From contig CAJINV010000006.1 of NCBI GenBank assembly GCA_905178155.1, forward strand, positions 3,346,437 to 3,410,436: DNA of 64,000 bases. Reading direction: 5' to 3'. The DNA comes from Amoebophrya sp. A120 (lineage: Eukaryota > Protista > Dinoflagellata). Made by a program: the position numbers and the translations under genes. Below are positions 1 through 64,000 of the stretch, piece after piece. Under the pieces are notes generated by a model, which searched no databases, had not been told where the DNA came from, and worked only from the letters and a program-made list of their open reading frames with translations. Numbering within the stretch: the first letter of the stretch is position 1; each line of letters begins with the position of its first letter.

Positions 1-3000
1 ACGACGAAAAACATATGAGCTGCAAAATTATCGTAGTAATTGCAATCATGCATGGCAAATCTCTCTCTGAAGGGGAATCCGCATTACAAATTCCATTTGT
101 CATGCTGGCCAACTTTGTGATGCGATTTGTATGTACCAAGTGCGATACTTTTGCAATTCATAAAACAAAGGGTACTACAACCGCAGACGTTGTGATCACA
201 TAGGAGGTGAGCAGCCACAGATTCTGAAGGAGGAAAAGCCGGTGATTTCACCGGGAGATGAGGTGGAATCTAAAATTTCAGCAACAGCAGGTGCAGGGAA
301 CAAGCAGGCTCAGGAACGCCGTTTGGAGGGAAATTATGACAAAAACGAACCGCACGACCACGAGCGACGACCCTCGTCTCTGAAAACAGAAGCAGATGAG
401 GAAGAGCCGAGGTTGTACTCGCATTATCAGCAGGTCTTTGACCAGGCGCAGGGACGGGGGAATAATTTCGCGGATTTTCTCTTTTCTGATTTGGTGCAAG
501 AACCTGATAGTGAACAAGGGCAGGAACTGCAAGAGACGTCTTCTGCACAGGTAGGGGATGCTAATGCGCCGTCCTCTTCCGGAGAAATAGAAAAGGTACA
601 GGGAGTAGATGAGCAGCAGTGTCGTGAGCGAGCGACCACCGGTGGTGAAGTAGAAGAAGGCGAATTCGCAGTGGTTACTGCCTGGCTGACAGAACAAGCG
701 GTCGCGGGCGAAGCTGCGAAAGTTGCCGACGAAGTGACAGCAGTGGGAGGAGATGCAGGGATCATCGTGGCTGCAAGCGATAATCCTCTCGCTGCAGCAG
801 TGGTGAGGGTGACTACAGGCGAAGTGGGAGTTGTTCCTCTGCAGCACGACAATATTGAGAGTGCACTCGAGCAAGAACCACAGATGAGCGACGCCATAAA
901 AGGTACATCGTCCGAAATATTAGATGAGGATAGCCAGAAGGCACCAGTGGGCGGCGGCGCAACTACTACACTTCTAGCGGCAACTGAGAGCACTACAAAT
1001 GACCCCCGCGCGGCACGAGAAGATGTGGGTGGCCGCGAAACGGCTGAGGGTGCGATAAAAGACCAATCCGAGCACGGGGCAGAAGCACCTGATCATGCAC
1101 AAGCGCCACAATTAGCTCCAGCCGCTCCTGCAGAGCCAGCGCAGCTGCAGAAACAAACACAAGCGGAAAACGACGTCGACATGGAAGTTGTGGAAGTAGC
1201 AGAACAAGTGCCGCTGCTCGCGGTGGCTCCTGATAGTACAACGGCACAACTACCACCATCGAGCACGACACCAGCGGTGGATCAGGAAAAGGAGCTGCTG
1301 ACCGCAAATAACGCATGCGCAGCTGCAACACAAGTGGCGGATCATGCGCAGCAGGCGCCAGAAGAAGCCGTGTTCTCTTCTACAAATATAGCGCCAACGA
1401 CTTTTCGACCCCGCAGCAATACGGTGGATGTGGTCACGGGCACCAGTGCCGCTAATGTCACAGCAGCCACATCATCTTCCTCCACCACCGCTGCATCAAA
1501 ACTTGACCACGAAGTGACAGGAGGCGTGTACCCTGTGCAAAGGTATCGTACTCGTACAAATGCATTACAAATTTCCTCAACATGAGAAATAAAATTTGTA
1601 ATGCGGATTTACCTTATAGAAAAAATGCAAGATTGCAATACGAGTACGATACTTTTGCACAGCATAGCGTGAAAAAACCTACAACTTTCAGTCCGGCAAA
1701 CAAGCCAAAATCGCTCAAGCCGCCAAATAGAAGAACCACACTGAACAACTCGTTGAAGAATCTGAACCAGTCGGGAGGACATCAACACAGCACATCCTTG
1801 CAAATTATCGACAAACACACCAACATGCAGTCTATTCGCAACCGAACATCTCTAGCGATCGACAGACTGTTGTCTTCCAGCAAGCTTGGCGGTTACTGCG
1901 AGTTCAAGTCCGCAATTGGGGAAAAGTTCCAGCCACAATACCTGCACGAAAAAGAAGAAACCTTGCCCTGTTACGTGTCCGAAGTGATCTTGCAACAAGA
2001 GCAGGCGAAGCAGGATTTTATCACCAGCGAGATTTTGAAGCCGACAACGACAAGCTCTTCAAGTAGTAGAAATAGGATCCCGCGCAGTGAGCAGGAATCA
2101 GCTTCAGCGGGAAGTGGTGCTGGTGCAGCTCTAAAGAGTAGCGCTTCTAATGTAGCGAACACTGGTTCGGAACCAGGCCTAGCCCCTATGGGTCCGAAAA
2201 GTAGTCCGACGTCAAGGTGCCCTACATCTTCTATGCCGATGCGGATGCCACTTCCGCCGCCGGCTGCCATCGTTGCGCCAACGTCTACTTCTGGCACATC
2301 TACTAGCAGTTCATTTTCCGGGGGCTCCAGCTCATCTTCCGGCACAGCTACTACGAGGCCAAACAAACACCAAAAGCCCACTGCTGCATTCCTGAAAAAG
2401 CCTGCCACCACGCAGATCAAGCAAGTTCAGGTTTTGAGTTGGGAGGATTGGCAGGCGCAGAGGAAGCTGGTGGATCTGATGAACCGGCAAGCAAACGGGA
2501 ACCAACGGTATTCTTCTGTGAACAACTTCGGCGCATATGGAACAAGCATGAATGTTCTTGCGGGTGGTAGTAGTGGTAGCTCCTCTTCCTCTTCGAGCTT
2601 GCTCAACTCCACGGCTTTATCCGGAAACAATCAGTCGCGCAGGATGTTGTATCAGCAGGGAGGGAAACAGTTTCATCCGTTTGGAATGAACAACATGTCC
2701 GCTTTCGCGAAGCAGAAACAGAGGTCTATGAGCACGGACGGAATTAGTGGAGGTTCCACGTTTGGCAGCAGCTACAATGTGAAAGAGCAGTACGCCAATC
2801 CGAATAAGAACGCGAGAAACCAAAACCTGTTCAAACTGATTTTTGGCAAAGACGCGAGCAAATCCACTTCCTCGACCACAGGGGCAGTTGCGGGGAATGC
2901 TAATGTTGGCACTTCTGCTGCAGGAGCGCAAGTGTTGACTTCTTCAACTTCTGCAACACCTGCTGAAGAAGGTTTTGTTCCAGCGGCTCCTAGTTCTGGC

Positions 3001-6000
3001 GGAGATTCTGCTGTTGATGTTGACCCGAAGATGAAGCTACAACCGGCTTCGGCAGCGGACGGAAACAAGGTACTTACCAATGTAGCATCACGTTTGTATC
3101 TATTAGATGGAGCCTCTGTCATCTAGCAGGTCGTGTTCGATGTCTTCTACACGATTTTCGTTTTTTTTTCTTTCAGCAAAATGCATGACAAATTCATCAC
3201 TTATTGTTCATTCAAACAGGATCATCTTGCAAGACCGGCCGACAAGAATCCGCTGGATTTGGACGTCGACATGAAGCCGGCAACTGACATTCTGGAGTCG
3301 CAGCTCAGTCTAGGAACAAACGGTGCGTCGAAAGAACAAACTGAACCCGCCCCGGTAGCTGCACCCCTGTCCGCGGCTCAACACACGGATAATATAGGAG
3401 AAAGTAGCGTCCTCGCGCCAGTCTCCGCTCCAGTAGTAGAAGATGTCGAGATGGCTGACGTCGGTTCGAAAGAGGAGGGCCTGTATGCATTGCGAACGTA
3501 TCGTACTAGTATAAATTAATCGCAATACAAAGTTTTCCAGAAAGGAAAATGAAATTTGTAATGCTGATTTCGCTAAGAAACAAGATTTGTCATGCATGAT
3601 TGCAATTAGTACGAGTGCGATACTTTTGCAATTCATAGCCTGGCACGAGGAACAACATCTTCTTCATCTGCCAGCAATCCCACAGGGGCAGCAGCAAGAA
3701 CTTCTATTCCTGCTATGCCCCCACCAGCATCCGAAATAACTACACTTACCAAAGAACAACCCGCACAGGGCACCAGCGCAGTACGTAAAAATCCGGTAGA
3801 AGTAGTAGCCCAGAGTTGTCATGCAATTCTGCATGCCAAAGAAGTTTCTCTTCATGCGGAGCCATATGAGAAGCGTTTCCTGTTCATATTTTGGAATTTG
3901 TCATGCTAGAATCAGCATGCTTTGCTAGATCTGTGATGCTTCTGAACTAGCTAAACAGGATCACACTACGAGGACAAACCTGTCATGCCAAACAACCAAA
4001 GCTAGCTGATTTGTCTAGCAGATTTCCCATCTTGACTCTGGTGTGGGGACGTTTTTACACAGGATATGTCATTCTGGAGTCGCAGCTCACTCTAGGTGGA
4101 ACAAACGGTGCATCGAAAGAACAAACTGAACCCGCCCCGGTAGCTGCTGCACCACTCGGGGCCCAACACACGGATAATTTAGGAGAAAGCACTAGCGTCC
4201 TCGCGCCAGTTATCTCCGCTCCAATAGTAGAAGATGTCGAGATGGCTGACGTCGACTCAAAAATCAAAGATGAAGTACTAGGCCCAACATCTTCGTCATC
4301 TGCCAGCAATCCCACAGGGGCAGCAGCAACTTCTATTCCTGCTATGCCCCCGCCACCAGCATCCGAAATAACTACACTTACCAAAGAACCCGCACAGGGC
4401 ACCGGCGCAGTACGTAAAAATCCGGTAGAAGTAGCGAGCAAATCCACTTCGTCGACCACTGGGGCAGTTGCGGGGAATGCTTCTAATGTTGGCACTTCTG
4501 CAGCGCAAGTCCAAGTGTTGCCAGCACCTTCAACTTGTTCTGCAACACCTGCTGAAGAAGGTTTTGTTCCAGCGGGGGTTCCTACTTCTAGCGGGCAGTC
4601 TGCTGACGTTGACCCGAAGATGAAGCAATCCGCTTCGGCAGAAAACGGGAAGGTGCTTTTACCATTCTAGCATGATCACCTTGGTATCTATCAAGAACTT
4701 CTGTAGTCTTCCTAGCAGCACGTCGTATTCGTCTACACTCACAATTATTTCCGTTTTTGTTTCTTTGAGGAAAATGCATAGACAGTTATTGCTTATTCAA
4801 ACAGGATCATGTTGCAAGACCGGCCGAAAAGAATCCGCTGGATTTGGACGTTGACATGAAGCCGGCTACTGAAGACGTTCTGGAGTTGCAGCTCATTCTA
4901 GGTGGAACAAACGGTGCATCGAAAGAACAAACTGAAGCCGCCCCGGTAGCGGCACCACTCGTGGCTCAACACACGGGAAATACAGGAGAAAGTAGCGTTC
5001 TCGCGCCAGTCTCCGCTCCAGTAGTAGAAGATGTCGAGATGGCTGACGCCGGTGCGAAAGAGGATGGCCAGGTACGAGGGGAGACACCTTCGGCATCTGC
5101 CAGCAATCCCATAGGAGCAGCGCCAGGGGCCTCCATTCCTGCTATTCCATTTCCACCAGCATCGGAAAATAAGACACTTACCATGTTGCAACAGTCACAG
5201 GGCACGACGGCCAGCGCAGTACGTAAAAATCCGGTAGAAGTAGTAGCGTCTGCCAAGAACACCAACACGACCTTGCCGAAATTGAATCTGAACTACAAGC
5301 CACCCAGTCGTGCAGTCCCACAACGACTGACCGGACCTACTGCGCAGTTGGTGACAGACGCCGATTTACAGCAGCCAGCACGTGCTATTGATTTCTACGT
5401 CGGCGCGACAAGAACTGGAGGTAGTTCTAGTTCTAGTTCTGCTGATGTTTCCCAACAGCAACAAAAAGCGCAAGAAGTTTCTGTATCAGACCCGAGAAAA
5501 CAGCTTTCCCCACACAAGAAAGCGCAACACCCCGCAGCAGCCACAAAGCTACCGAACAAAATGCGGAATGCGATCATCAAACCGATGCAGAATGTATCAC
5601 AGGAAAAAGTGTTAACGTCACCGAAATTTGTGATGCAGCAATGCATCACTAAACGTGCCAAAATTTGTATTGCGTAGCATGCATGGAAGGCAATATTTGT
5701 ATATGCATAGCTGCCATCTGTGAAAACCGTGGACGTTAACACTTTTCTGCTTGATAGAATCTTTTGGAAAAATTTTGGAACGAGAAAAAGCAGTGCTACG
5801 AAAGGAACAAAGAATGGAGCCCGCAACTCTCCGTTACTCTGTATCGCAAGAAAATAAAACTGTTTCAGTGTAAACTTGTGATGCATAGGATGCAAGAACA
5901 CAGACGCATTTGTCTTGCTACACATGCAAGATCGCTTGGGTTTATTTTCAACGTGTTTTCCCTTGGGAAGTACGCAGGGCAAGTTTGTTTTGTCATCATG

Positions 6001-6266
6001 TGTAAACGAACTTGTAATGCAAAACTTACAAAATCCTTTACAGTGAGACACTTTTTGCTGCCGATACTCTGATCAAGCTGCTGAATAACGGGGAGAAGTT
6101 CAACGTCTTCGGTTGCGATCTCGATCCGGAGGCGGATAAATTGAAGAAAATTGCGCAGAGCCTGTTATCCCAGCTGGATGGGAAGGCTGTAGAGGCACTC
6201 TTGGAGAGTTCTTCTTCGGAAAGTGCTGGCGGGGGAACTAACTCCAGATCGGGGTCGAAAGCGTAA
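1..6266 (+). CDS. Large low-complexity (Ala/Ser/Thr/Glu-rich) hypothetical protein with internal tandem modules; 5'-partial, multi-exon
   Basis: ORFs 242-1585, 1582-3126, 3133-3519, 4011-4670, 4844-5677 and 5764-6072 join in frame after removing TIR elements at 14-162, 1529-1666, 3484-3637, 5595-5756 and 5842-6066 (each plus one 5-nt repeat) and GT-AG introns 3070-3219 and 4653-4804. The protein ends ...TNSRSGSKA-TAA at 6266. The junction at ~3810-4062 is unresolved. Confidence 0.7.
14..162. mobile_element. Introner, family A (TIR TATnnnnTGCAAAAGTATCG)
   Basis: TATGAGCTGCAAAATTATCG...CGATACTTTTGCAATTCATA, flanked by AAACA/AAACA. Confidence 0.85.
1529..1666. mobile_element. Introner, family A
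   Basis: TACCCTGTGCAAAGGTATCGTACTCGTA...TACGAGTACGATACTTTTGCACAGCATA with direct repeat GCGTG/GCGTG. Removal fuses the 447-aa and 514-aa ORFs (TGGV-KKPT). Confidence 0.9.
2854..5245 (+). repeat. Intragenic tandem duplications (module X twice, module Y three times)
   Basis: Module X (ASKSTSSTTGAVAGNA...DPKMK plus a GT-AG intron plus DH.ARPA) starts at ~2854 and ~4434. Module Y (LESQL...VEDVEMAD...VRKNPVEV) starts at ~3289, ~4071 and ~4878. Confidence 0.9.
3484..3637. mobile_element. Introner, family A, present in only one of three repeat modules
   Basis: Direct repeat GCCTG/GCCTG; the sister modules lack the insert. Confidence 0.9.
5595..5756. mobile_element. Introner, family D (TIR ...AAAAAGTGTTAACGT)
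   Basis: TATCACAGGAAAAAGTGTTAACGT...ACGTTAACACTTTTCTGCTTGATA with repeat GAATG/GAATC. A reverse-complement relative lies at 53686-53854. Confidence 0.9.
5842..6066. mobile_element. Introner (TATCGCAAGAAAA family)
   Basis: Repeat CTCTG/CTCTG; related ends at 42145-42357 and 59765-59973 (the latter inverted). Confidence 0.8.
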
Positions 6267-7117
6267 CTACCGGCGGGTGCGAGAAACATGATGTGGGGCA
6301 TAAGGTTTGATCTACTCTTGTGAAGCAGATTTATTGTGAAAAACTACGATGATAGACATAGATGATGTTGCCACGGGATTATATTTTGTGTAGTGCTGTA
6401 CTCATCACATTGAAGAGAGACTCGTCTCGTCTTGACTAAATTAGCGCAGCTTCTTGATCTTATTAAAAAAATTTTTTTTACGAAACACTCGGATCCTAGG
6501 TTTGAATTTTCTAACGAACGCGAGCTGATCATAGTGATACTCTTAGTCTACCATCTACTTCTATCTACAAAAATGAAATTATCTTACATAGTACGACTGA
6601 ACCCGCTGGAGCATCGAAAGATGTCTCCGTCGCATTTGTCGTTCGCACTTCATTTCTAGTTGGCGGTCAGAGGGTGTGCAAATCAACAATTCAGTAGAAT
6701 TTTTATCAAGCACGCATTGCTATTGTTAGGGCACGACGACCTTTTTGAGCAGATCCCATCTCAACAAGAAGTCACTTCAGCTTCCTCTGACAAGTCTTCC
6801 GAAAAAACGTAAGACACCGATGGTGATGGAGAACAAGAACCCGAGACGATCCGTATGATGGCGGATTCATCGGGACGAAGATGGTGAATTTCTATTGCTT
6901 ATTACTGAGAAAATCTCCGTGACACTTATAGTAAAATTTTCATTCAAATCAAGAAAAATACAAGAGGACAACTGGATAAGGGCCTCCCCGCTCCTGCTAA
7001 CTATGACAAAAAGCACAAGCTGCAACTTCACTCTCGGCGAAGTACAAGCACTACATGAGCTTGAGCAGCTATCTCAGCTTGTGACTTTAGATGATTCAGC
7101 TGCAAAGGCAGCGCGTG

Positions 7118-8672
7118 TGTGTGGTGTTCAGTGCTTGGCCGGTACGCCGATGGATTTTGTCGGGCTCGGGTAGTGTGAAAGAAATAACTGCGAGCGAGGA
7201 CAGCAAGCCCCGACACGAAGGCGCCAGGCGGCCGGGAGCGGGCCGGCTTGGCGCACCTTTAACGCCGGCCGGGGTGCGCCTGGCTGACAGCTACGAAAGC
7301 GCCACCCTTGCGCGCCCTGGGCCGACCCGGAAAACGAAGGAGATTGGCGCCCATTCGCATGGGCGGGCATTGACTGGATTGCGTGCAAGCCGGTGCAGCA
7401 CTTGCGCACTCCGGGCGGTTAATGTGTGCGCGGCCCCGCGAAGCCCATGGCAGCCAGCGGCTGGCTTGATGCGCCGGCCGAGCGGGCCCCTACGTACCGC
7501 CGAGGCGAGCTCCTACGTAGCGCCAAGGCGGCCGCCTTCTGGCCCGATACATACATAGGGCGGGCGTGGAGTTAGCAGGCGCGCGGGCGCGAGACCCCTC
7601 CTGGGCGCGTTGTCACGCCGGCGCGGTTTTGCGGGGGCGGGTCTGCAAGTGCAGCCGGCCCGTGCTTGCGCGGGTGCCTTTCCGAGACCGGGCGCGCGGG
7701 AGGGTCTCCAGCTCTTCCCCCAGCTCTGTGAAGTGTTGAGGGCTTTACGGGAAGCGGGCCGGGGCCCCGAAGACTACACTGCCGCGCGCCGACGGCGCCC
7801 GCCCGCGGAGTTCTTCAAGGCAGAGCCGGCCGCATGTTTTTCGGCCGGCCGGGCTTGTTGCAGATTGGTTGCTTCGCCGAAGCGTTCGGCAACAGCTGCG
7901 CGGCGCTGATGGGCCTTCCTGCACGCCCCCCGGCCGCCCCCGCATGGTCTAGCAAGCTGGGGGCAGTGCCTCGACCGGGGGTCGCGGCGCGCGCGCGCCG
8001 CCGCCCAGAGATTGGCCCGGCCGGGCCGGCCGTGTTGTGTGTTTGTTTGCCCGGCTGGCGCGCCCCGCGCGGACCCCTTGCCTTGCGGGCGGGGCCGTCT
8101 TCCTGCCCGGAGGGGCGGCGCGTGGTTTGTTGAAGGGGTGGCCCGGTGTCTCGTCTTTCTTGGCTCGGGCGCACGGCCGGGCGCACGCGCCCCCCACCCT
8201 CTTTGGCCTGATCGGGCGCAGGTGCGTCTGGGTGGTGGGCCGGCTTCCCCCGTCGGGGGGGCAGTCAACCACCCAAAAACGCATCGCGCCGTGGGGGGCG
8301 CCGGCGGGCGGGCAGGCTTCCTTGGCTGTTGAATGTTGGCCGCGTGGTGGGGTGTGTCCGTCGGCTGCCGGGGCGCTGGCCCACTCACCCCGGTGCCCGT
8401 GGCCCCAATGCGTGGCTCCGTCTGCAGGGCAGCCGGCCAAGTATTTTTGTATGTTGTGCGGTGCCCGCCGGCGCCCCGCTTGCCCGCCCGCATAGATAAT
8501 CAATCTTGGCTCATTGTGTTAGTTGGGTATATTGTCTGTGTTGGATTGGTTTGTGCATTTCGGCCTGGGGCTGCAATGGCGTTGCATTCTCGTCAGCCTG
8601 TTGCAGTCGTGTCGGCCGACAGTCCGCTTGCCGACTGACTCACTGCCCTTGCCCTCAAACGACCGTCACACA
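7118..8672. mobile_element. GC-rich intergenic island, possibly a solo LTR or non-coding mobile element
   Basis: Abrupt switch to very high GC (core ~7200-8490). Bounded by TGTGTGGTG...CGTCACACA (TG...CA with a short inverted end). No target-site duplication and no credible ORF found. Confidence 0.3.
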
Positions 8673-9048
8673 TTACCTGTGTTGTTCCGCTTCTTTACGG
8701 TATAATGGAAAAATTGATGCACCGCTCAGACTCAGAGTCGATGTCGATGTCGAAAGCGAAAACACAGAAAAAAAATGTTGTTGCTTTTGTTATTATGAGG
8801 GAGAGGGACGGTCACAGCACTGGCAATTCATCTGTTGAAGTGGTGATTTTTTTGCACCAGTACTACCTAGCGCCGGCATTGAGGGTTTACGTTTTGAGAA
8901 GGTGCTCGTCCCTTGATGTGTGGACCCCTTTTGTTTCCGCCCTGGTAGTTTAATTATGTCATGTTATTCTTTAGTTAATGTTCTTGGCCCAGCTGAAGAC
9001 TGGGCTTCGCTCACCTCCTTCTATCCCCTCTGCCATCAAAGCAGCTGA

Positions 9049-11401
9049 ATGCTCGGCTGCAAGCGACGGCGAACGAACAGCAGCAGCCCCCTACAAGATC
9101 AGGTCGATGCAGGAAGCAATAGAGGCTCCTCCGGCGACAGTGCGCTGAATAACAGGAGCTGCACAAGTGTAGTTGATCACTCTCAAGAAAGAAGAACCAA
9201 AAGGGCTCCGGGCGAAAACGATAAGGGAGGCAAGAGCATCAAGACCATTTACCGGAACAAGAAAGCCCAGAGCTGTAGTTGTGATCCGGCTGATGGTTCG
9301 ATTGGTAATTTGGAGAAAAAGCCAGCAGGAGCAGGAGGTCAGCACCCACACCGAAAAGCACCATCGAAGGGAGAGCCAGTACCAGCTCCAGAGTCCCCGG
9401 AAGCAGGAGATATCAACGACCAAAAGAAGAACATCAATAACAGCGGCCGCCCTCGCTCAAAAAGCACAGGCGCAGCTGCAGCGAGCAGCAAGAAATCGGC
9501 GGCGCACAAGTCCTCTGCTGGTGACAAACAAGAGGAAGCAAATAAAACGTGTTCGCCTGTGAGAGCAGGTCGCCGACAATCGTCTTCAAAAATGGAGCCC
9601 CATTCCAGTCCGCAGCAGCTCACCCGCCCCCTTGTGCAGCCCATCCCCTCCCCCGTGAGCTCTAACGCGGCGCCGAAACCACAGGACAATTCCCAACTTC
9701 CTCCCGCGGGGCTGAGTTCCAATTATGCGAACAAAAACGAATCCAAGTTGCTTAGCAGGCCAAAAACCGTGGATCAGCTGTTGATAGAGAAGCTGTTAGC
9801 TGAAGACAGTCAGGAACAGCAGCAAAACCTAAATCTCCGGGCGATCAACGAAGACGAGGAACTGCAGCAAATGCTGGAATATCCAGTGCAAAAGTATCGC
9901 ATTCGTAGCAAGTAATTGCAGTTGTGCATCGCAAATCTCTTTGTCAAGGTCAATCAGCATTACAAATTTGATTTGTAATGCTGGGCGAATTTGTAATGCA
10001 ATTTGAATTTTTACTAGTACGCTACTTTTGCCTTGCATATTGAGCTGTCGAAAAAAGAATTCTACGACCGGGAGTTCCGGATGGGCGCCTCACACGACAT
10101 CTTGGTTGCGCGGGTTTTGTCCTACGGGTTATGCAATACAAATTTCCCGCCGTACATGTACAATACGCATGACAAACTTCGCTAATTTTGAGTGTCAAAC
10201 TTGTCATGCAGATTAAGATTGAAGGCAAGTTTTGTCATGCAGAGACAGCATTTGATGTACGTGCACAGGAAATTTACTGTGGATGCGGGCTGAAGGAGAG
10301 ACACGTGAAGGGGGACGGATCGTGCCAGTTCCGGGCTATGGATTGCAAAAGCATCGTAATAGTATGAATTGCATTACAAATTTCCTCAGCATTAGACATG
10401 GAATCTTCTGTAATGCAGATTTACCACGATAAAAAAGATTTGTAATGCGTAGCTGCAATTAGAAGTACGAGCGCGACACTTTTGCACAGGATCCGGGCCC
10501 TGTCAGACCAACTTTACGGCACCGAGGAGCACCACCAGAATGTGCGGAGGAAGGTGATTATCAAATGCAAAAGTGTCTGGGTCTGGAACAGTGAAAGATT
10601 TGCCATGCAGGTTTTCCATGACCCATGAGGTCTGTAATGCAGGGTCTAGCGTCACAGATTTTGAGAGGGCTTCCTGATGCCTGTTCCGCATGAGAAATGC
10701 CCTCTCGCCGTGGCAAAAACTGGACTCCTTTTGCTGGTCATGCATTACGAGATTTTTTTCGAATCCGAAGACAGCATCACAAGTTTCAACCTTCCAGACC
10801 CAGACATTTCTACATTTGATAGTGATAGAAAAACTGGAGCAGGAAGCAGACCACTACAAAAATTTTGTGCTGTCCAAAACGGAAATTGAGTCAAAGGAAC
10901 AGGCTGACGAAGCTTTCAACCTGTATCTGGTCTCCATGTCCGAAGAGTCCACTTGGGGTGCTATCGTACGTGCATGCATTGCCAGCGCCATGAGCATTAG
11001 TTTGTAGTGCGCGAGGACGTCGTAGAAGTCGTTAGTACAACGGGCAGAAATGAGATCAAGATGAAAGTTGCTTGTTTTACTTTACGATTTTTACGTGCTA
11101 GTGTCCGCTTTCGCATTACAAACTGCGTGCCTGCTTCGTGAAGCTGGCAATGTTAAATCGCATAACAGATCACGTGACGCTCCAAGCGGCTGCAGATGTT
11201 TACAACTGTGAGATAAAGCTGATCACGAGCTACGATGACGATGCGATCTTGTCCATTTTGCCCCTGCAGAATAAGAACGCTTCTTCCGCATTTGGTGCAG
11301 CTACGAGGAAAAAAAGCGGAGCGAATAGAGCCCTTTGGCTCGCGTTTTGGGCCGAGGTTCACTACAATTCGGTAGAGGAAGACTACGTGGCGGTTGCTTA
11401 G
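9049..11401 (+). CDS. OTU-domain deubiquitinase (cysteine protease) with a low-complexity N-terminus
   Basis: Removing elements 9880-10039, 10130-10285, 10337-10493, 10559-10821 and 10962-11164 gives ...VKGDGSCQFRALSDQLYGTEEHHQNVRRKVIEKL...STWGDHVTLQAAADVY...LWLAFWAEVHYNSV, containing the OTU Cys-loop and His-loop motifs. Confidence 0.92.
10559..10821. mobile_element. Introner, family B (TIR TATnnnnTGCAAAnATGTCTGGGTCTGGAA)
   Basis: Repeat GTGAT/GTGAT. Same orientation as 24207, 29513 and 61833; inverted relative to 42691, 43648 and 54258. Confidence 0.9.
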
Positions 11402-12011
11402 ATAATTGCAGAGCAGAAGTAGAATGAAAAATTGTACAACATACCCAATGAATACAAAGTCGGGGACGGCCATAACTGCCTTTGACAGCTAGAGCACTAC
11501 ATGAAATCGTGAAGATGAACAATTGTACAAATGAACCCCGGCCGCCACTGGCAGCGTCAGCGAGCAGATGCGGCGGGCGCTTTTGCGGGCACAGCCAGCG
11601 CTGCTCAGTGAAGATTAGAAGTAAATTTATCGTGTTTGTTGTTTGACAGAGCATAATATCTCCGCTCTCCTACTGCTGCTGTCGGTACTTCTGCACGCCG
11701 ATCACGCCTTCTCAATCTTGCGGGAGATGATGTGCATGGAAGGTGCTGACGCGGCAGAGACGACTTTACCTGTTGTAGGACCCAACAGCGGTCGTTCATT
11801 TTGGTTGTTTAGCGGGAAAGAGCCAAACCTTTTGTTTCGAAAGTAAATTTTTCTACGAGGATCAATTTCAGCGATCATCACGTACTAGAAGTCGTCGATA
11901 CTACGTTAGGTCGTCTCACTTACCGAGTTCTTACGAGGCCCTTCGGTCTAGGTACCACAGCAATGTGGGCTTAAATTTTCCTGCTGTCGAAAGAAAGCCA
12001 AGCGAAATCAT

Positions 12012-13305
12012 ATGGACACCAGCAACATCATGTCCGCGCATGGTCTGTCCCTTTGCTGTCGTTCGCTTGTCAGGCTCAGGGGCGGTCTGACGCTTGTCCT
12101 CTCGGCGATATTACCCTGGCGGGCCATCATCACAGCGACTCCGGCTACCGTTCGTGCGAATGAAGAGGCACCGCTTGTCGACACTAGCAGGAGCATCTAC
12201 GAGGAAAAGGGTTTCTTCACGAATTACGATGCCGATCCACTTTGGGTTCGTCTGGACACTGCGCTGCGCTGGTTTCCCGATTTGCTTGACACAAGGCTGC
12301 ACAAGAACTCCTCGCCGCGACGGGTGATTCTGAAGCAGGTGCTCTACTACACACAGGACCAGGGGGCGCTGGCGCGGCTGAAGAATAACTACAGCAAAGA
12401 ACCTCAAATAGGAGTACTAGAAGACCACAGCGGCCACACTGACACTGCTTCCTTATCTATGCACGAGAAGTGGAACAAAAACTTCTCTCCTTATCTCCAC
12501 CCGTTTCGGATCTATTTGGAGAAAAAGGACTCCGCGAGCGAACTGCATGTCGACACGGACAAGCCCTGGATCGGAAAACCGTATTTGGAAAAATCGGATT
12601 TGAAAACCATATGGATGTGTCAGGTTTGAAATCGTCAAAGTTGAATAAGTATAAGTAGCTTGTCATGCATAAAACGGTTACCAGTTAGACCTACAGTTTG
12701 TAGTCGGCGCATGGCAAATTTTCCCGGTCCTGGAAGCGAGTATGTCATGCGGTTTAGGGCAAAAGAGCTGCCTTCTGTCATGCTAGTCAGCAGTCCAACT
12801 TTTGATCCTTACCAGGACTATAATCTGTCTCCCGTGTGTCCTCTGCAATAGAGTCACTTTTTGCATTGCATTTTATGCATGGCAAATCATTTCAACTTTG
12901 ACGATTTCAATCCTGACACCCCCATAAACCAAGCCGACCAAATATTTGAACGCTTTGTCGGAAGACAAATCCGAGGAGCCTGTTGCCTACGTGCAGTTTT
13001 CCAGCGGGAAGGAAGTGGTCGAAATGCTGAAAAAAGCTTGTCACGCGCAGAAAACTGCAAAAAATAAAGAAGACAAAGCAGTGGCAACACCTCCCTCGGA
13101 AGACCGCCACAACACTGAAACTACAGATGACGAGTCTGCTGGTGGGGGTGTTTTCTCTTCCCTTTGGTCTTCGGTAGTCGGGGCGGTTGCTACAAGCGGA
13201 GGAGCTGCTGTGGAACAATCCGCAACAGAAATCAAAACTTCTTCTTCGTCCTCGATCACGACCCCTCGTCCAGTTGTAGACCTCACCAAGCAAAAAACCG
13301 CACTG
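12012..13305 (+). CDS. 5' part of the methyltransferase-domain gene, truncated by the gap
   Basis: Copy of 20073-21366, including a family C element at 12610-12926. Confidence 0.65.
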
Positions 13306-13590: not shown

Positions 13591-14326
13591 CCCGCAGCAG
13601 CCACAAAGCTACCGAACAAAATGCGGAATGCGATCATCAAACCGATGCAGAATGTATCACAGGAAAAAGTGTTAACGTCACCGAAATTTGTGATGCAGCA
13701 ATGCATCACTAAACGTGCCAAAATTTGTATTGCGTAGCATGCATGGAAGGCAATATTTGTATATGCATAGCTGCCATCTGTGAAAACCGTGGACGTTAAC
13801 ACTTTTCTGCTTGATAGAATCTTTTGGAAAAATTTTGGAACGAGAAAAAGCAGTGCTACGAAAGGAACAAAGAATGGAGCCCGCAACTCTCCGTTACTCT
13901 GTATCGCAAGAAAATAAAACTGTTTCAGTGTAAACTTGTGATGCATAGGATGCAAGAACACAGACGCATTTGTCTTGCTACACATGCAAGATCGCTTGGG
14001 TTTATTTTCAACGTGTTTTCCCTTGGGAAGTACGCAGGGCAAGTTTGTTTTGTCATCATGTGTAAACGAACTTGTAATGCAAAACTTACAAAATCCTTTA
14101 CAGTGAGACACTTTTTGCTGCCGATACTCTGATCAAGCTGCTGAATAACGGGGAGAAGTTCAACGTCTTCGGTTGCGATCTCGATCCGGAGGCGGATAAA
14201 TTGAAGAAAATTGCGCAGAGCCTGTTATCCCAGCTGGATGGGAAGGCTGTAGAGGCACTCTTGGAGAGTTCTTCTTCGGAAAGTGCTGGCGGGGGAACTA
14301 ACTCCAGATCGGGGTCGAAAGCGTAA
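13591..14326 (+). pseudogene. 3' fragment of gene 1 (duplicate or assembly copy)
   Basis: Matches 5531-6266, with stop TAA at 14326. Confidence 0.6.
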
Positions 14327-15176
14327 CTACCGGCGGGTGCGAGAAACATGATGTGGGGCATAAGGTTTGATCTACTCTTGTGAAGCAGATTTATTGTGAA
14401 AAACTACGATGATAGACATAGATGATGTTGCCACGGGATTATATTTTGTGTAGTGCTGTACTCATCACATTGAAGAGAGACTCGTCTCGTCTTGACTAAA
14501 TTAGCGCAGCTTCTTGATCTTATTAAAAAAATTTTTTTACGAAACACTCGGATCCTAGGTTTGAATTTTCTAACGAACGCGAGCTGATCATAGTGATACT
14601 CTTAGTCTACCATCTACTTCTATCTACAAAAATGAAATTATCTTACATAGTACGACTGAACCCGCTGGAGCATCGAAAGATGTCTCCGTCGCATTTGTCG
14701 TTCGCACTTCATTTCTAGTTGGCGGTCAGAGGGTGTGCAAATCAACAATTCAGTAGAATTTTTATCAAGCACGCATTGCTATTGTTAGGGCACGACGACC
14801 TTTTTGAGCAGATCCCATCTCAACAAGAAGTCACTTCAGCTTCCTCTGACAAGTCTTCCGAAAAAACGTAAGACACCGATGGTGATGGAGAACAAGAACC
14901 CGAGACGATCCGTATGATGGCGGATTCATCGGGACGAAGATGGTGAATTTCTATTGCTTATTACTGAGAAAATCTCCGTGACACTTATAGTAAAATTTTC
15001 ATTCAAATCAAGAAAAATACAAGAGGACAACTGGATAAGGGCCTCCCCGCTCCTGCTAACTATGACAAAAAGCACAAGCTGCAACTTCACTCTCGGCGAA
15101 GTACAAGCACTACATGAGCTTGAGCAGCTATCTCAGCTTGTGACTTTAGATGATTCAGCTGCAAAGGCAGCGCGTG

Positions 15177-32158: not shown

Positions 32159-32290
32159 ATGTTGCTGTCTTCCCGCTTTTCCGTGAAGATCTTTTGTCTG
32201 CTATCCTGGGGCGCCAGTGAATTTACGGCTGCGACGGAGATCGCTTTCAAGCTATTGAGCGGGGACACCCTGCTAACCATTGACAGTGCT
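32159..32290 (+). pseudogene. Decayed 5' fragment of the same secreted family
   Basis: SRFSVKIFCLLSWGASEFTAATEIAFKLLSGDTLLTIDS matches the N-terminus of 33139. A weaker relic (KFKLLSGTLRTI) lies at ~31864, and upstream sequence is also repeated. Confidence 0.7.
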
Positions 32291-50191: not shown

Positions 50192-52328
50192 GGTCACTTT
50201 GACCCACTTTGAAGTGGGTCGAAACACGACCTGACGACCCACTTTCAAGTGGGCCTGAAAGTGGGTCATTTTGACCCACTTTTGTGGGGGGGCGGAAAGT
50301 GGGTCACTTTGAGGTGGGCCCGAAAGTGTGTCACTTTGACCCACTTTGAAGTGGGTCAAAACACGACCTGACGACCCACATTCAAGTGGGTCTGGAAGTG
50401 GGTCACTTTGAACCACTTTTGTGAGGACCGGAAAGTGGGTCACTTTGAACCACTTTTCTGGGGGGGCGGAAAGTGGGTCACTTTGAGGTGGGCCCGAAAG
50501 TGGGCCACTTTGACCCACTTTGAAGTGGGTCGAAACACGACCTGACGACCCACATTCAAGTGGGTCTGAAAGTGGGTCACTTTGATCCACTTTTGTGGGG
50601 ACCGGAAAGTGGGTCACTTTGACCCACTTTGAAGTGGGTCAAAACACGACCTGACGACCCACTTTCAGGTGGGTCGGAAAGTGGGTCACTTTGACCCACT
50701 TTTGTGGGGGGGCGGAAAGTGGGTCACTTTGAGGTGGGCCCGAAAGTGGGCCACTTTGACCCACTTTGAAGTGGGTCGAAACACGACCTGACGACCCACA
50801 TTCAAGTGGGTCTGAAAGTGGGTCACTTTGATCCACTTTTGTGGGGACCGGAAAGTGGGTCACTTTGACCCACTTTGAAGTGGGTCAAAACACGACCTGA
50901 CGACCCACTTTCAGGTGGGTCGGAAAGTGGGTCACTTTGACCCACTTTTGTGGGGGGGCGGAAAGTGGGTCACTTTGAGGTGGGCCCGAAAGTGGGCCAC
51001 TTTGACCCACTTTGAAGTGGGTCGAAACACGACCTGACGACCCACATTCAAGTGGGTCTGAAAGTGGGTCACTTTGATCCACTTTTGTGGGGACCGGAAA
51101 GTGGGTCACTTTGACCCACTTTGAAGTGGGTCAAAACACGACCTGACGACCCACTTTCAGGTGGGTCGGAAAGTGGGTCACTTTGACCCACTTTTGTGGG
51201 GGGGCGGAAAGTGGGTCACTTTGAGGTGGGCCCGAAAGTGGGCCACTTTGACCCACTTTGAAGTGGGTCGAAACACGACCTGACGACCCACATTCAAGTG
51301 GGTCTGAAAGTGGGTCACTTTGATCCACTTTTGTGGGGACCGGAAAGTGGGTCACTTTGACCCACTTTGAAGTGGGTCAAAACACGACCTGACGACCCAC
51401 TTTCAGGTGGGTCGGAAAGTGGGTCACTTTGACCCACTTTTGTGGGGGGGCGGAAAGTGGGTCACTTTGAGGTGGGCCCGAAAGTGGGCCACTTTGACCC
51501 ACTTTGAAGTGGGTCGAAACACGACCTGACGACCCACATTCAAGTGGGTCTGAAAGTGGGTCACTTTGATCCACTTTTGTGGGGACCGGAAAGTGGGTCA
51601 CTTTGACCCACTTTGAAGTGGGTCAAAACACGACCTGACGACCCACTTTCAGGTGGGTCGGAAAGTGGGTCACTTTGACCCACTTTTGTGGGGGGGCGGA
51701 AAGTGGGTCACTTTGAGGTGGGCCCGAAAGTGGGCCACTTTGACCCACTTTGAAGTGGGTCGAAACACGACCTGACGACCCACATTCAAGTGGGTCTGAA
51801 AGTGGGTCACTTTGATCCACTTTTGTGGGGACCGGAAAGTGGGTCACTTTGACCCACTTTGAAGTGGGTCAAAACACGACCTGACGACCCACTTTCAGGT
51901 GGGTCGGAAAGTGGGTCACTTTGACCCACTTTTGTGGGGGGGCGGAAAGTGGGTCACTTTGAGGTGGGCCCGAAAGTGGGCCACTTTGACCCACTTCGAA
52001 GTGGGTCGAAACACGACCTGACGACCCACATTCAAGTGGGTCTGAAAGTGGGTCACTTTGACCCACTTTTGTGGGGACCGGAAAGTGGGTCACTTTGACC
52101 CACTTTGAAGTGGGTCAAAACACGACCTGACGACCCACTTTCAAGTGGGTCTGAAAGTGGGTCACTTTGACCCACTTTTGTGGGGAGGCGGAAAGTGGGT
52201 CACTTTGAGGCGGGCCTGAAAGTGGGCCACTTTGGCCCACTTTGAAGTGGGTCGAAACACGACCTGACGACCCACATTCAAGTGGGTCTGAAAGTACTTC
52301 ACTTTGACCCACTTTTGTGGGGGCCGGA
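50192..52328. repeat. Tandem satellite with a 246-bp higher-order unit (~8-9 copies) built of AAAGTGGGTCA / TGACCCACTTT inverted motifs
   Basis: Repeat-derived ORFs recur exactly every 246 bp (50639, 50885, 51131, 51377, 51623, 51869, 52115). Core motif GAAAGTGGGTCACTTTGACCCACTTT. Confidence 0.95.
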
Positions 52329-53087
52329 AATGATTTGTGGTCCTGATTTCAGGGCCGGGCTGACCCTAATTCGTCCTGACCCTGAATTCAGCGTCGGAGT
52401 GAGCCTGGTCTCAACCATCAACAAAACACAAACCAACAATTTTTTTTTGGCATAATTATTGCCACACTTACAATGAGTCGGTTGCTGAGCTATCCTTTTT
52501 CCCTGGGAGCGAATTGGTGAGTCGGCATGGCACGAGGAATTCTCACGGTCGCAATAAAATTTTAGAAAGGAGCGACAAGAAAAAGAATGAGCAGTTGAAG
52601 ATCGGTATGATATTCAGGAGTTCGGTCGTGCGGTGTGCTACAACTGGTAAGTAGCACTTCAGAAGTTGTACTCCCATCGAAAAGAGATGAGAGGACGGCA
52701 CGCAACAGCACATAATTACCGAGTGAGTTTTTTTCACATGAAAATTATTGAGAGCATATGATATTACCCCGACTTCTGTGTTTGGTGTTTTTTATCCAGT
52801 ACCCCGGCACATTTGTCTACTACTCACCAAGAGCCACTAAAGCTAGTAGACCCCATCAACAACATATTTATAGTAAAAACGAGTTTTAGCACCAGATTTA
52901 CTTTACTTGCCGTACTGTACAAGTTGAGGGCGAGTCTCGAGACCGACGTGCTGAAGCATTCAGCAGTTCATTTTCGTTCAGTTCAACATTTATTTATAAC
53001 CGAGGAACCCCTGCAGCGGGACAACACGACAGAGCTGCTGGAGATATTTAGTATTATTTGTCAAACCCATCATCATCTACCGTCAAT

Positions 53088-57991
<4,904 letters not shown>

Positions 57992-59425: not shown

Positions 59426-62400
59426 ATGGCTCGCCTGGTACCCGTTTCTTCTTTTCCGTTGCGGGCCGCGCTCGTGCTCTGCCTGCCCGCCGTGACCCTG
59501 CAGTTTTCCGGGTCGCTATTTGCCTCCGCCATCCGGGTGCACAGTGACGACCAAATCAACCATGTTGCTACTCTAGCATCTTCACCTGCAGCGCTGCTCG
59601 TCACAAAGTCTTCAAAGCAAGACCCCACAGCAGCTCCAGCGGCTCCAGCACCCAAACCCAGCGGCTGGGGCGTCCACCACAGCACCACATCGCATTTGAA
59701 GAAACCGGGGAAGGGCTACAGCTACGGCTCGCCACTGTACGGCCAGAACATGCACTCCGTTTCCTATCCCACGAAAAAACTGTTTCACTGTGATGATTTT
59801 GCAATATCTGCATCACAAGTCTGCTACACATGGCGCGGAGAACTTGCCATGCGCGCTTCCCGAGGGAAAACACGCTTCAAAACCCAATGTCTTGCAGGTG
59901 TAGCAAGACAAACAGCTTGGTGCTTTCTTGTCTGCATCACAAGTTCACAGTGAAGCAGTTTTTTCTTGCGATATTTCCCACAACTCCTACACGACCCAGT
60001 TCCCGCCGGCTCCGCCATCGACCGCCATGCAATGTGTGATCACCCTGACCTTATGCATTGCAAATATGTCTGGGTCTGGCTCTGGAAAGTTGTCATGCTA
60101 ATGTCCAAAGGATAGGCGAACTGTGTTGCTGAGCCGCGCATGACAAGTTTCTGAGCGGCTATGCCTAGCGCTAACCGCATGACAAATAGCCCTTTTACAT
60201 GACAAACAAATGCCGTTGTAGCGCGACAAGCATGACAGACTTCTGTGTATTGCTATTGCCGGCCGAGCATGACAATCTTCTATTCTACTTCCAGACCCAG
60301 AAGTCGTTCTCTTCCCCGTGCTGTACCAAGGTCTTGTTTCCAGACAAAACACCCGACATTTTTGCAGTTCATAGACCTTTCAGTTCTTCATGATCCTCTC
60401 TGCGGTCGCGATTTTGAAGACGATCAAAGAACTTTCCGCCAACAACAAACCCTCCACTCTGCTCGTCGCGTTGCAAGTGTCCCGCGGGACCTTGACCTTC
60501 GTCCCCATGCTGTGCGTGTTTTTCCTGGCGATCCGCATGCGGGCAGTGCAGTTGGCGGGCGGGGATAACGACCAATTCGATTTGCCGCCAAACTGGATGA
60601 AGACGATGATGAAGATCGCAACATCGGCTGTTGTGATCCAGGGGGTTGTCGTGCTGCTTTGCCCGTTTTTGTTGAACAAAATGCCGGAAGTCGACAGCGA
60701 CGGAAACATTGTACCGCCGAGTTCCACTGCGGCGGCTTTATGGTGCTGGAAAAAAGCTTAGCAGAAGCGGGCTGATAGATGCTTTGATACACAAGGGTCG
60801 TTACTTACAACACTGAATACGTCTGCAGGAGTGTCCTGGACCACGGCTACCACGACAGTGACAGTGTTAAGAACTACCAGGTTGTCATGCGTCTTCGTGC
60901 ACATGTTGAAAAAGTTGCTGATTCTCACTTGGAATAGGCCGCGCATGTGCAGCTATTCCTGTGCGAAAGGCAGTACTCATCACAAATCAATATCAAACAT
61001 CAAGCAGAGGCAGCTTCACTTGGTTCTTTATTTCTCTTGTATACATCGGCGGAACGCTCCAGAGAAGCTGGGGATCTACGGTATAAAAATGACTGACACT
61101 ACTTTTGACCACGATGACAAAATATTTCTTCGTACATGCTGATCATTATTGCTTCACAAAATACCATCCTATTCCTAGTTGTGGCTGCGCATGACAAACT
61201 TTCAAACTCAACCTTCTATCTAATTAAGGTTCTCACCATAATCCGGTCCTTCTCCTTCCTCGGCCTGTGGACGTCGATTTATCCTGCTGAAACAAGATGA
61301 AGTTCGGGTCAATACGAAATTTGTATTGCAGAGAACAGTAATATGAAAAGCTAACGTATCTATGCCATACTAGCATGACAAATTCAACCCTGACCCGAAA
61401 TCAAAACTTTTCGCAAGTGCATTCTCTTCCAGCACTGATTACCGGCATGTGGTTCATGAAGCCTCCGGTCGAAATTTGGGGCCCCCGGGCGGACATGCAG
61501 AACGAAGATTTTCCCTGGCCGGCAACCTCCTATCAAATGCAAAATGAAGATTGCGAGACTTGTCATGCTTGTCTGGCATGACCAAAAAAGTTTGTGATGC
61601 GTGTCCAAGAAGAGACCCTTTTGCCTGTCATGCAAAAACGCAGTTTGTCATGCGAAAAACGCAACACAAAGAAGCGCAGATATTTCTCATGCTTGGCTGT
61701 GCATTACAGAGCATTCACTATTCCCAACGCAGCATTACAAGTTTCCAGACCCAGACATTTTTACATTTGATACTTCTGTGAAAGCCACGATGGACATGAC
61801 GTCCCTGTTTTTCGTCGTCTACTTCGCCCTCGTATCAACTGTAAAAATGTCTGGGTCTGGAAGATTGCCAGGTTTGTCATGCACATTCTGCATGACTCCT
61901 CAAGTCTGTGATGCATGCCCTAGCATCACAGATTTTTAGAGGGCTTCCTGAAGCCCATTCCGCATGACAAATGCCCTTTCCGTGCTGCAAAATTTGGACT
62001 CTCTTTGCTGCTCATGCAATACAGATTTTTTTAGAGTCCGAAATCAGCATGACAAGTTGAATTCTTCCAGACCCAGACATTTTTACAGTTGATACGTCGC
62101 GATGCTCCGGGAGTTCAACAGCCCCAAATTCGCCCACACGATTGCGTACGCATTGCAAAAGTATCGTACTAGTTCTAGTAGTGATTGCATAACAAATTTG
62201 CTTAGCATTTTTACGAACAAAACTTGTAATGCTGTTTTACCTTAGGAACGAGATTTGTCATGCATAACAGCAATTACAACTACGAGTGCGATACTTTTGC
62301 AATGCATATCACCCTGCTCCAAACCGTGACACCAACTTTGAACCTCGCCCCGATGTTCTGCATCTTGTTTCTCGGTGCCAGGATGCGGGCCTTGCAAATG

Positions 62401-64000
62401 GACCCCATTGACGGGCACGTGCAAAACTGGTATCGACTGCAAATATGTCTGGGTCTGGAACAAGGATGCAACTTGTGATGCGCATTTTGGATTAGACAAA
62501 AATAATCAGTCATGCAGGGACAGCAAAAGTAGCTTACAACTCATCATCAAACTCTGGAATTTCTCATGCGATCTAGGCACTGGGAAACCTCAATCACCAA
62601 ACCTGTGATGCTATTGCTGGCATGCCAGAGCTTCTGGGTCATGCAAAATCAGTATGACAAAGTCCGCAGTCATCCAGACTCAGACATATTTGCAATGCAG
62701 AACTGGGCGAAGGTCGCGATGATCTTGACCACAACCGGTATGGAAGTGCAAATACGTCTGGGTCTGGAAACTTGTCATGATGAATTGGCGAGACTGAAAT
62801 ACATTCCAATGCAGCCAAGCATGAGAAGTTTGCAGAGCCCGTCCTCTTGCGCAGTCCGCATGAGAAACAGGGCTTTTGTATTACAAAAAGGGGGACTCTC
62901 TTGCTAGTCATGCAATACAGGTTTTACAGGAGTGTAGGACTAGCATTACAAGTTCCATATTTCCGGACCCAGAGATTTGCAATCCATAACCGGTATGGAA
63001 GTGCAGATTCTGGCGATGTTCGTCTGCGGCCTGTGTCTGAACGGCGAGGTGAGGGCGGGGAACTGTGAAGGGGATGTGTATCCTCAGCAAAAACGTCCCC
63101 AGCACAAAGTTGTAATGCAAATGCGCAATGACAGGAACATTTGTAATGCGCATCTCCACGAGACGACGAGGCATTTTTCATCGTGATTTGACAATTTTGT
63201 AATGCTGTAAACAGAATGAGAAATTGGCTTTCTCGTGCGGCTTGCTTAGCTTTCTCGTGCGGCTTGCCTTGCTAAGCACCACTACACTACAGACGGAAAC
63301 TTATCATGCACAACTCCCAAAGCTTGGCGGTTTGTGTTGCAGATTTACCAACTTGGCTATGGGTTGGGGTCGTTTTTGCTCCGGATAATGTGAGGTTTAA
63401 AGTCAGCAACCCCTGGGTCATGGTGGTGATGCAGGTAATGGTGATGTTGTCACGAATTCATCATGGTTTTTTGTCATGCGTGAAACTGCATGAGAAGGAC
63501 TTTCTGTCATGCATAAAACCACTTTACAAATATTTGTTCATTCTGCCATTCACAACATATTCAGATCATCCGTTGGTCCACGATCGTCTGCATCTATACC
63601 GGCGCATTGATGGTTTTAGTTTCCGTCTGCGTGCTCGAGCACCCGAAAGACCCGGCAAAGACGCCGCCAGTCAGCTCGGCAATGAAGTGTGTGATGATCT
63701 TGACGGTACTGTACCTCATTGTCTACTTCGGCCTGTTCCTGATGACCTCGCTCCGCACCTGCTTGGGCAGTCAGTTTGGTTCGTCCGTCCTCCGTGCGTT
63801 CGACACGGCTCGCGGCACGGTATTCTTCGCGCCGATGCTGTATCCTGCGTAAAAACGTTCCCACCCCAGAGTTGTCATGCAGAATTACAATCACTGAAAA
63901 ACTTGTAATGCGCATTTCCATGAGAGGCATTTTCAATCGTGTTATGCAATTTGTGATGCTGTCAAGAGAATACCAGGATGGATTTGTGATGCGGTTGTCC
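59426..64000 (+). CDS. Multi-pass membrane protein with a repeated (A/V)PML...RMRA.Q domain; 3'-partial
   Basis: Signal-like N-terminus. Repeat units TLTFVPMLCVFFLAIRMRAVQL (~60490), TLNLAPMFCILFLGARMRALQMDP (~62335) and TVFFAPML (~63817), each preceded by a PP.S.AM.CV-like helix. Elements at 59765-59973, 60052-60373, 61531-61772, 61833-62094, 62147-62308, 62431-62701, 62739-62988, 63079-63387 and 63841 onward; GT-AG intron 63435-63564. The 60739-61420 stretch is less certain. Confidence 0.8.
63079..63387. mobile_element. Introner, family I (TATCC...AAAAACGnCCC)
   Basis: Repeat ATGTG/ATGTG; a second member starts at 63841 and runs off the window. Confidence 0.88.

Follow-up and report, generated by a model that had tools for sequence, protein, structure and literature searches.

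Inverted-repeat introns of Amoebophrya sp. A120, the register of their removal and a motif in common with GT-AG introns

The genes in a stretch of 64,000 nucleotides from contig CAJINV010000006.1 of the dinoflagellate Amoebophrya sp. A120 (hereafter the window, meaning the whole stretch that was analysed) are interrupted by short elements with Terminal Inverted Repeats (TIRs), which are flanked by a 5-nt Target Site Duplication (TSD) and are skipped in transcript-like contigs. The element class is real and already known, as an earlier note on this DNA recognised, given that Farhat et al. (2021) describe it as the introners of A120 (PMC7789003), and the fixed cut register, the independence of orientation and the shared internal motif reported here appear to be new. 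We consider it fairly probable that these elements are DNA transposons of a non-autonomous kind and that a modified U2 spliceosome takes them out.

Elements that form the majority of introns

Eight gene models, built from a relaxed inverted-repeat scan with manual curation, contain 74 introns, the majority of which (63) are TIR elements, the remainder being 10 GT-AG introns and one TT-AG intron. One further TIR element, at 63841, is truncated by the end of the window, which gives the approximately 65 distinct elements and the majority intron class of the earlier note, allowing for the stretch 60738-61439 of gene I; this stretch was left out of all counts, and an 8-kb duplicated block, which holds additional copies, was entered once. 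Pairs of TAT..ATA inverted repeats number 125, vs. 11-26 in 20 Markov shuffles, and a general scan of the window for TIRs with TSDs was dominated by a 246-nt satellite.

With a length of 138-329 nt (median 231) and no internal stop-free stretch longer than 104 amino acids, the TIR elements are short and non-coding, as are Miniature Inverted-repeat Transposable Elements (MITEs), and the summed depth of the DNA contigs of run X1, up to 2e5 in element bins vs. approximately 30 elsewhere, marks them as repeated in the genome. No high-scoring element of the relaxed scan was found outside a gene in the window. The elements are dense in some genes, with 12 in 1.5 kb of the dihydrolipoamide dehydrogenase (DLD) gene and 22 in 3.2 kb of a protein kinase-like gene; few interrupt low-complexity exons and none lies between genes.

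The 5' end triplet is TAT in 55 of the 63 elements, TAC in seven and TAG in one, and the 3' triplet is ATA in 61, in line with the TAT(C/G)...(C/G)ATA ends described earlier, while the A at TIR positions 11, 12 and 13 (51, 56 and 56 of 63) fits the published start. The two TSD copies agree at 4-5 of the five positions in 47 elements, positions beyond the TSD being near chance, and seven elements match at merely 1-2 positions. An independent set of 283 elements, retrieved from 149 loci by a degenerate TIR pattern with no TSD filter, has a perfect 5-nt repeat in 216, any other length from 2 to 9 nt occurring at most 28 times and a length of 6 nt once, so that the 5-nt flanking repeats of the earlier note are borne out except at those seven elements.

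All 149 loci come from one assembly project, their best likeness to the copies in the window being 78-89%. This source project (loci L002-L150) is filed among metagenome contigs, and the same element families lie there inside eukaryotic genes (Rpb1, SNF2 and DNA ligase domains); three "long elements" in the loci may each be two adjoining elements, and one small TIR cluster of 4 resembles false calls.

Clustering of the element cores gave groups of 14, 12, 7, 2, 2, 2 and 2 members with 22 singletons, and the independent set also forms several TIR groups. The earlier count of at least eight unrelated TIR families was overstated as to "unrelated", since the families have in common a TAY(C/G) start, the A-tract at positions 11-13 and an internal motif. 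Members of a family may lie either way round on the mRNA (6/6, 10/4 and 4/3), and the elements 55332 and 61530, 90.7% identical, lie in opposite orientation. Elements of a family function as introns in either orientation, which appears to be new relative to published accounts; neither this nor the paired motif described below was found in the text and supplement of Farhat et al., figures apart (PMC7789003).

The A120 introners in the accessible parts of that paper have inverted repeats of the form TAT + 7 nt + AAA and direct repeats of 3-5 nt. They agree with the elements described here in the organism, this TIR start, a 5-bp direct repeat, a length of approximately 240 nt, their share in the majority of introns and their likeness to MITEs (PMC7789003).

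Two of the genes with transcript evidence have the following features:

53088 to 57991, + strand: DLD gene, 490 aa, with 12 TIR elements and 5 GT-AG introns
53155-53395, 53686-53854, 53911-54193, 54258-54510, 54630-54880, 55333-55588, + strand: DLD TIR elements 1-6
55640-55784, 56185-56392, 56722-56940, 57254-57413, 57450-57711, 57753-57923, + strand: DLD TIR elements 7-12
53479-53603, 55071-55199, 55815-56049, 56482-56603, 57022-57163, + strand: DLD GT-AG introns
40213 to 48756, + strand: protein kinase-like gene, 1074 aa, covered by one X3 contig and by one X4 contig
40395-40532, 40622-40906, 41027-41355, 41429-41682, 42145-42357, 42469-42631, 42691-42936, 43037-43229, + strand: kinase-like TIR elements 1-8
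43331-43596, 43648-43914, 44006-44174, 44227-44529, 44572-44831, 44902-45132, 45215-45384, + strand: kinase-like TIR elements 9-15
45597-45859, 46055-46203, 46364-46644, 47472-47697, 47804-48009, 48121-48357, 48447-48614, + strand: kinase-like TIR elements 16-22
47253-47444, + strand: kinase-like GT-AG intron

All eight gene models are open once the element plus 5 nt is deleted, as had been claimed, and the protein is truncated in 62 of the 63 cases when the element is kept, and likewise in 62 of 63 when it is deleted without the 5 nt. The spliced model of DLD, the essential enzyme with 12 inserts of the earlier note, is identical to the annotated A120 protein P0001 (490/490), with 401/493 against A25. 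Pkinase Pfam matches of the kinase-like gene are weak and below the cut-off.

The transcript-like contigs belong to runs X6, X3 and X4 of one study, their RNA status being a guess of the search tool, and the joints listed are 15 of 670 in the comparison with X6 and 15 of 23 in a second comparison with X3, X4 and X6. These contigs join exons without TIR and GT-AG introns alike, the exons showing no differences, and the skipped length equals the element plus 5 nt at all 20 TIR joints among those listed. The record coordinates, which cover joints beyond these, are consistent with the models for the kinase contig (14/14) and the DLD contig (3/3). In the contigs of this study, the elements are thus removed from RNA with ends other than GT-AG, as are the A120 introners.

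On the other hand, X1 contigs with a depth of approximately 30, as for single-copy DNA, retain the introns at 53154-53399, 56184-56396 and elsewhere, and pieces of X7 also pass junctions unspliced, which contradicts removal at the DNA level. A ciliate-like excision before transcription would suit the resemblance of the elements to DNA transposons, and it is highly improbable given that the DNA contigs keep the elements and that the joined contigs also lack the GT-AG introns, though rare joints in DNA may occur among the 670 of the X6 comparison beyond the 15 listed. One low-depth X6 contig (55789-56076) retains the GT-AG intron 55815-56049 and begins where the exon downstream of a TIR intron starts, which hints weakly that TIR introns may be removed ahead of GT-AG introns.

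The cut register

Mismatches between the two TSD copies reveal which copy the transcript keeps, and a cut after base 4 of the TSD is compatible with 25 of the 25 checked junctions, vs. 19 each for bases 3 and 5, and 8 for base 0. The register hypothesis was formed from the X6 joints before the comparison with X3, X4 and X6, so that 13 joints of the latter are a priori, two TIR elements of the kinase-like gene with borders corrected from the contigs being excluded from the a-priori probability. Under a uniform register, which is a crude null, such agreement would arise with a probability of 1.3e-3 at the 13 a-priori joints and of 9e-7 at all 25. Four junctions illustrate the rule:

40394 to 40536, + strand: exact-register junction, GT..CT ends, TSD 1/5, joint 40393>40537, the cuts falling 1 nt ahead of TAT and 4 nt past ATA
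47471 to 47701, + strand: second exact-register junction, non-G donor, CT..GA ends, TSD 2/5, joint 47470>47702 from the coordinates of the X4 record
56184 to 56396, + strand: GT..CC intron, joint 56182>56396, a GC-AG slide 2 nt upstream being unused
56721 to 56944, + strand: the sole TIR element with GT-AG ends, which coincide exactly with the common register

The joint 40393>40537 had been predicted from the sequence before the contig comparison, and the register is matched both by the loose contig end at 63839 and by the residue annotated at 55333. Since it holds at 40395, 47472 and 56185, where the TSD is nearly lost (1-2 of five positions), the cut is set from the element ends.

Some in-frame GT-AG pair lies within 12 nt of 33 of the 63 elements, which would favour the possibility, raised in the earlier note, that transcripts retain the elements (the genes being pseudogenes) or are spliced at such nearby sites. 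The transcript-like contigs lack the elements, the joints skip exactly the element plus 5 nt and leave no room for a slide to GT/GC-AG at 40621 or 56184, the open reading frames (ORFs) are complete, and the DLD model equals the annotated protein and its A25 counterpart at the level given above; this reading is refuted for the 25 checked junctions and its likelihood is practically nil.

The introns have the form N-TAY(C/G)...(C/G)ATA-NNNN, with 39 different terminal dinucleotide pairs among the 63 elements. Just one of these has GT-AG ends in the true register, which upholds the earlier view that most elements cannot be given such ends and leaves them outside the GT/GC..AG definition of U2-type introns. 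Mixed end types are also found, namely 25 GT..non-AG, three non-G..AG and the TT-AG intron, which has no 3' TIR.

The cut is fixed between bases 4 and 5 of the duplication, though it has been published as variable, and this register appears to be new. In the accessible parts of Farhat et al., approximately two-thirds of A120 introns are non-canonical, the position of the splice sites with respect to the hairpin is called "variable" and the ends are given no clear signature, whereas one register fits all checked junctions here; all 9 predominant A120 and all 9 A25 non-canonical types of their Table S4 carry T at +2, which is what a fixed register predicts (PMC7789003). The A120 families of Gozashti et al. 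(2025) are likewise TIR DNA elements, with no superfamily assigned, but among 21 of the 58 rows of their table the splice ends and TSDs vary within and between families and no fixed register appears (PMC12130899). No account of the register or the motif for Amoebophrya was found in a literature in which subscription journals were sparsely covered, and Fig. 3 and Figs. S19-S25 of Farhat et al. may show part of either.

Internal motif, removal and mobilisation

The internal motif, RYYTGT(C/A/G)ATGC (the "9-nt motif"), is found from 13 to 63564 on both strands, its first copy lying approximately 30-45 nt inside an end and often being paired with another 31-33 nt away. The cores of the introns hold 252 sites in 11.3 kb (22 per kb), vs. 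0.5 per kb in exons and 0.4 per kb between genes, and the motif is present in 70 of the 74 introns, including 8 of the 10 GT-AG introns, an occurrence in nearly all introns that is apparently undescribed. Copies on the same strand are mostly 31-32 nt apart, and also 93 and 124 nt, and pairs occur in 40 of 63 TIR introns and 6 of 11 other introns, and are missing from the 22 kb of exon and 15 kb of intergenic DNA.

In the loci, pairs occur in 176 of 205 oriented elements with the strands equal (111 vs. 114), and one TIR group of 6 has none; orientation was taken from a coding-strand model that was correct for 58 of 62 on its own training window. A branch-point role finds no support, the motif being equally frequent on both strands. 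Its symmetry and its spacing of three helical turns suggest that the pair is bound by a DNA-binding protein, whether a transposase, a host factor or both.

Under the preferred reading, the elements would be inserted in trans by a DDE transposase, which probably belongs to the integrase-like group having TA..TA ends, either way round and with a 5-nt duplication. The piece removed comprises the last base of the left duplication, the element and the first four bases of the right duplication, and the coding sequence is thereby restored. For the modified spliceosome, TAY would supply donor positions +2 to +4, the G at +1 and the terminal AG would no longer be required and the 3' cut would be measured 4 nt from ATA; as the ends are mirror images, an insertion in either orientation would be a ready-made intron. 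The motif pair, common to the GT-AG introns, may, more tentatively, help to mark the intron.

The GT-AG donors of the window show a matching pattern (T at +2 in 10/10, A at +3 in 7/10 and Y at +4 in 9/10), and TAC occurs 13 times at the sense 5' end vs. two occurrences of GTA at the 3' end (pooled p 0.007; independent set alone 0.29). The TIR and GT-AG classes share donor pattern and motif, the one GT-AG element falls on the common register and mixed types occur; between the modified spliceosome and the separate machinery offered in the earlier note, the data lean to the spliceosome. In A120, U2, U4, U5, U6 and 83 of 89 spliceosomal proteins are reported and U1 was not detected, according to the accessible parts of PMC7789003; no Rfam match was found in the window.

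Several points weigh against this reading. Removal by the spliceosome would have somewhat better than an even chance, and the RNA evidence consists of majority-form contigs of a single study with a guessed status, the raw-read runs X9 and X10 having given just 5 and 8 reads. In the window, G at +1 shows a mild enrichment (26/63, p 0.014) that the independent set (66/205) does not repeat, and the 3' AG is at chance in both (4/63 and 23/205), so that nothing shows a residual GT-AG preference. Four of the 74 introns lack the motif, including 47253 and 48120, both removed in the contigs, and Pfam recognised no transposase among 32 window ORFs (drawn from 100 listed at >=120 aa plus the modelled exons) and 99 of the 234 long ORFs of the loci. 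Finally, introns of Euglena show a like geometry, the machinery there not being known (PMC12501133, in its accessible parts). Selection for +1 G or a terminal AG, suggested by the window, was rejected when it was not reproduced in the 205 oriented elements.

The Euglena case underlies an alternative with the same elements and register, in which a separate stem-guided machinery, as proposed there, pairs the TIRs and an endonuclease and ligase or another complex makes its cuts 1 nt ahead of the stem and 4 nt beyond it. TIR introns do fold strongly (median z -5.5 vs. -0.6 for GT-AG introns), their terminal triplet positions are complementary in 62, 62 and 55 of 63 elements, fixed 3- and 5-nt spacers flank CAG/CTG in Euglena (PMC12501133), and this machinery would also suit the failure to detect U1 and an independent set that favours neither GT nor AG. 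However, TIR position 4 is complementary in just 37 of 63 elements, four RNA-supported introns (41026, 44005, 47471 and 48446) have fewer than three in-register pairs by prediction, and the frame is restored, as judged from frame only, at 3805 without most of the 5' TIR and at 10129 without the 3' TIR. The register also meets GT-AG where both occur, and GT-AG introns carry the internal motif too; we regard such a machinery as unlikely, if worth keeping in view.

In the accessible account, the nonconventional introns of Euglena lack GT-AG, carry complementary triplets a fixed distance from each end and have borders blurred by direct repeats, as here. They differ in having CAG/CTG with 3- and 5-nt spacers, vs. 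TAY/ATA with 1- and 4-nt spacers in A120, where the donor aligns with the canonical donor and the motif is shared with GT-AG introns (PMC12501133). The Euglena arrangement of CAG at +4..6 and CTG at -8..-6 is not found here, where TAY stands at +2..4 and ATA at -7..-5.

Concerning the motif, a reading that we put somewhat short of an even chance is that it serves only as the subterminal binding site of one transposase moving all families, with the GT-AG carriers as decayed introners and no role in splicing. The motif lies at a fixed 30-44 nt from the TIR end, is mirror-symmetric and equally frequent on both strands, has a spacing of about three turns, is common to several families and is missing from some spliced introns. 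Perfect or near-perfect copies at a spacing of 31-33 nt nevertheless occur in 6 of 11 introns without a recognisable TIR (random placement 0/20000), which would be odd for an unselected relic, and 13 exact sites stand vs. 0.4 expected.

A doubtful possibility beyond this is that introns are partly defined at the DNA level. A protein binding double-stranded DNA, perhaps a domesticated transposase or the one that belongs to the elements, would stand in for the missing U1 by recruiting the splicing machinery to motif pairs as transcription proceeds, with TAY/ATA setting the cuts; any insertion would be a seamless intron, and even GT-AG introns would depend on the mark.

Candidates for the mobiliser of the preferred reading come from the accessible parts of other accounts. 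Family 38 of Gozashti et al. carries an integrase-like ORF (PMC12130899), and no A120 transposase is given by Farhat et al. (PMC7789003). The IS3EU/GingerRoot elements (PMC10045372) share the TA..TA termini and belong to an integrase-like DDE group, but their TSD is usually 6 bp vs. 5 here, where a perfect 6-bp repeat occurs just once in the independent set and no enzyme was seen.

MITE-derived introns of Fritillaria borealis (PMC13326754; PMC11282704, beside which PMC12005148 is cited) are likewise a transposon-derived majority class, removed there by an altered U2 spliceosome. As far as the accessible text of PMC13326754 goes, they differ in their AG-AC/AG-AT ends, 3' YAY triplet, retained U1 and duplicated U2AF, the last four bases being free in A120. 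The introners of Polarella/Symbiodinium and Micromonas/Aureococcus (10.1101/2020.10.14.339549; PMC11282704) are also intron-creating TIR elements, some in both orientations, but they depend on a donor that begins with G and an AG acceptor, supplied by the element or the TSD, and those of A120 need neither. The accessible parts of the former source make no mention of Amoebophrya.

Other features of the window and the meaning of the register

The gene models A, OTU-like, C and D below are drawn from reading frames only, that of gene I from frames, contig pieces and the loose contig end at 63839:

1 to 6266, + strand: gene A, 3' part, 1614 aa open
14-162, 1529-1666, 3484-3637, 3806-4066 (most of 5' TIR deleted, frame still restored), 5595-5756, 5842-6066, + strand: gene A TIR elements
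3070-3219, 4653-4804, + strand: gene A GT-AG introns
9049 to 11401, + strand: OTU-like gene, 469 aa
9880-10039, 10337-10493, 10559-10821, 10962-11164, + strand: OTU-like gene TIR elements
10129-10268, + strand: hybrid TT-AG intron of the OTU-like gene without a 3' TIR, frame restored
20073 to 25688, + strand: gene C, 1052 aa open
20671-20987, 21440-21592, 21713-22029, 22573-22737, 23009-23153, + strand: gene C TIR elements, first five
23226-23483, 23610-23757, 23825-24063, 24207-24485, 24534-24683, + strand: gene C TIR elements, last five
22174-22409, + strand: gene C GT-AG intron
26901 to 30335, + strand: gene D, with a single TIR element at 29513-29774
59426 to 64000, + strand: gene I, hydrophobic protein, running past the window end
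59765-59973, 60052-60373, 61531-61772, 61833-62094, 62147-62308, 62431-62701, 62739-62988, 63079-63387, 63841 to the window end, + strand: gene I TIR elements
63435-63564, + strand: gene I GT-AG intron
5531-13305 and 13591-21366, + strand: duplicated block, a 7.8-kb direct repeat, 99.85% identical, flanking a 285-N gap
50236-52330, no strand assigned: satellite of 246-nt units, 7.7 copies, 99%, made of short inverted blocks

Gene A gave no Pfam match in the four exons tested, and the OTU-like gene no OTU Pfam match on single exons; its name rests on the motifs CQFRALSD, WGDH and HYNS, which we take to be those of OTU proteins. Genes D (26901-30335) and E (33139-35538) and a fragment at 32159-32330 have blocks in common by eye and look like paralogues, gene E having no element, D one, and the fragment stopping at an element-like 5' end near 32290.

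The stretch 60738-61439 of gene I has degenerate ends, the model having 548 nt vs. 561 nt in the contig (13 short), which requires 95 exonic nt there. The exon after element 62739 opens with approximately 12 nt that match the 5' end of that element, so that the direct repeat is long (62739-63010). Every modelled gene lies on the + strand, which agrees with the co-oriented blocks reported for Amoebophrya. The 7.8-kb duplication is either an assembly artefact or a very recent tandem duplication, and 7100-8600 and its copy are very GC-rich, unlike their surroundings, with no Pfam match in the two ORFs tested and no Rfam match.

As to the biology of A120, how tens of thousands of introns are removed without GT-AG ends or a detectable U1 is now a testable question. 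Where there was "no clear signature", the single register provides a precise code, N-TAY...ATA-NNNN, which can be checked genome-wide with existing reads; it tells where lariats or circles would be sought and would correct annotated intron borders. The internal motif would act as bait for the transposase and for any intron-marking factor. Finally, the register would explain how invasion can be cheap, given that a symmetric element and its 5-nt duplication are removed tracelessly at any site and in either orientation.

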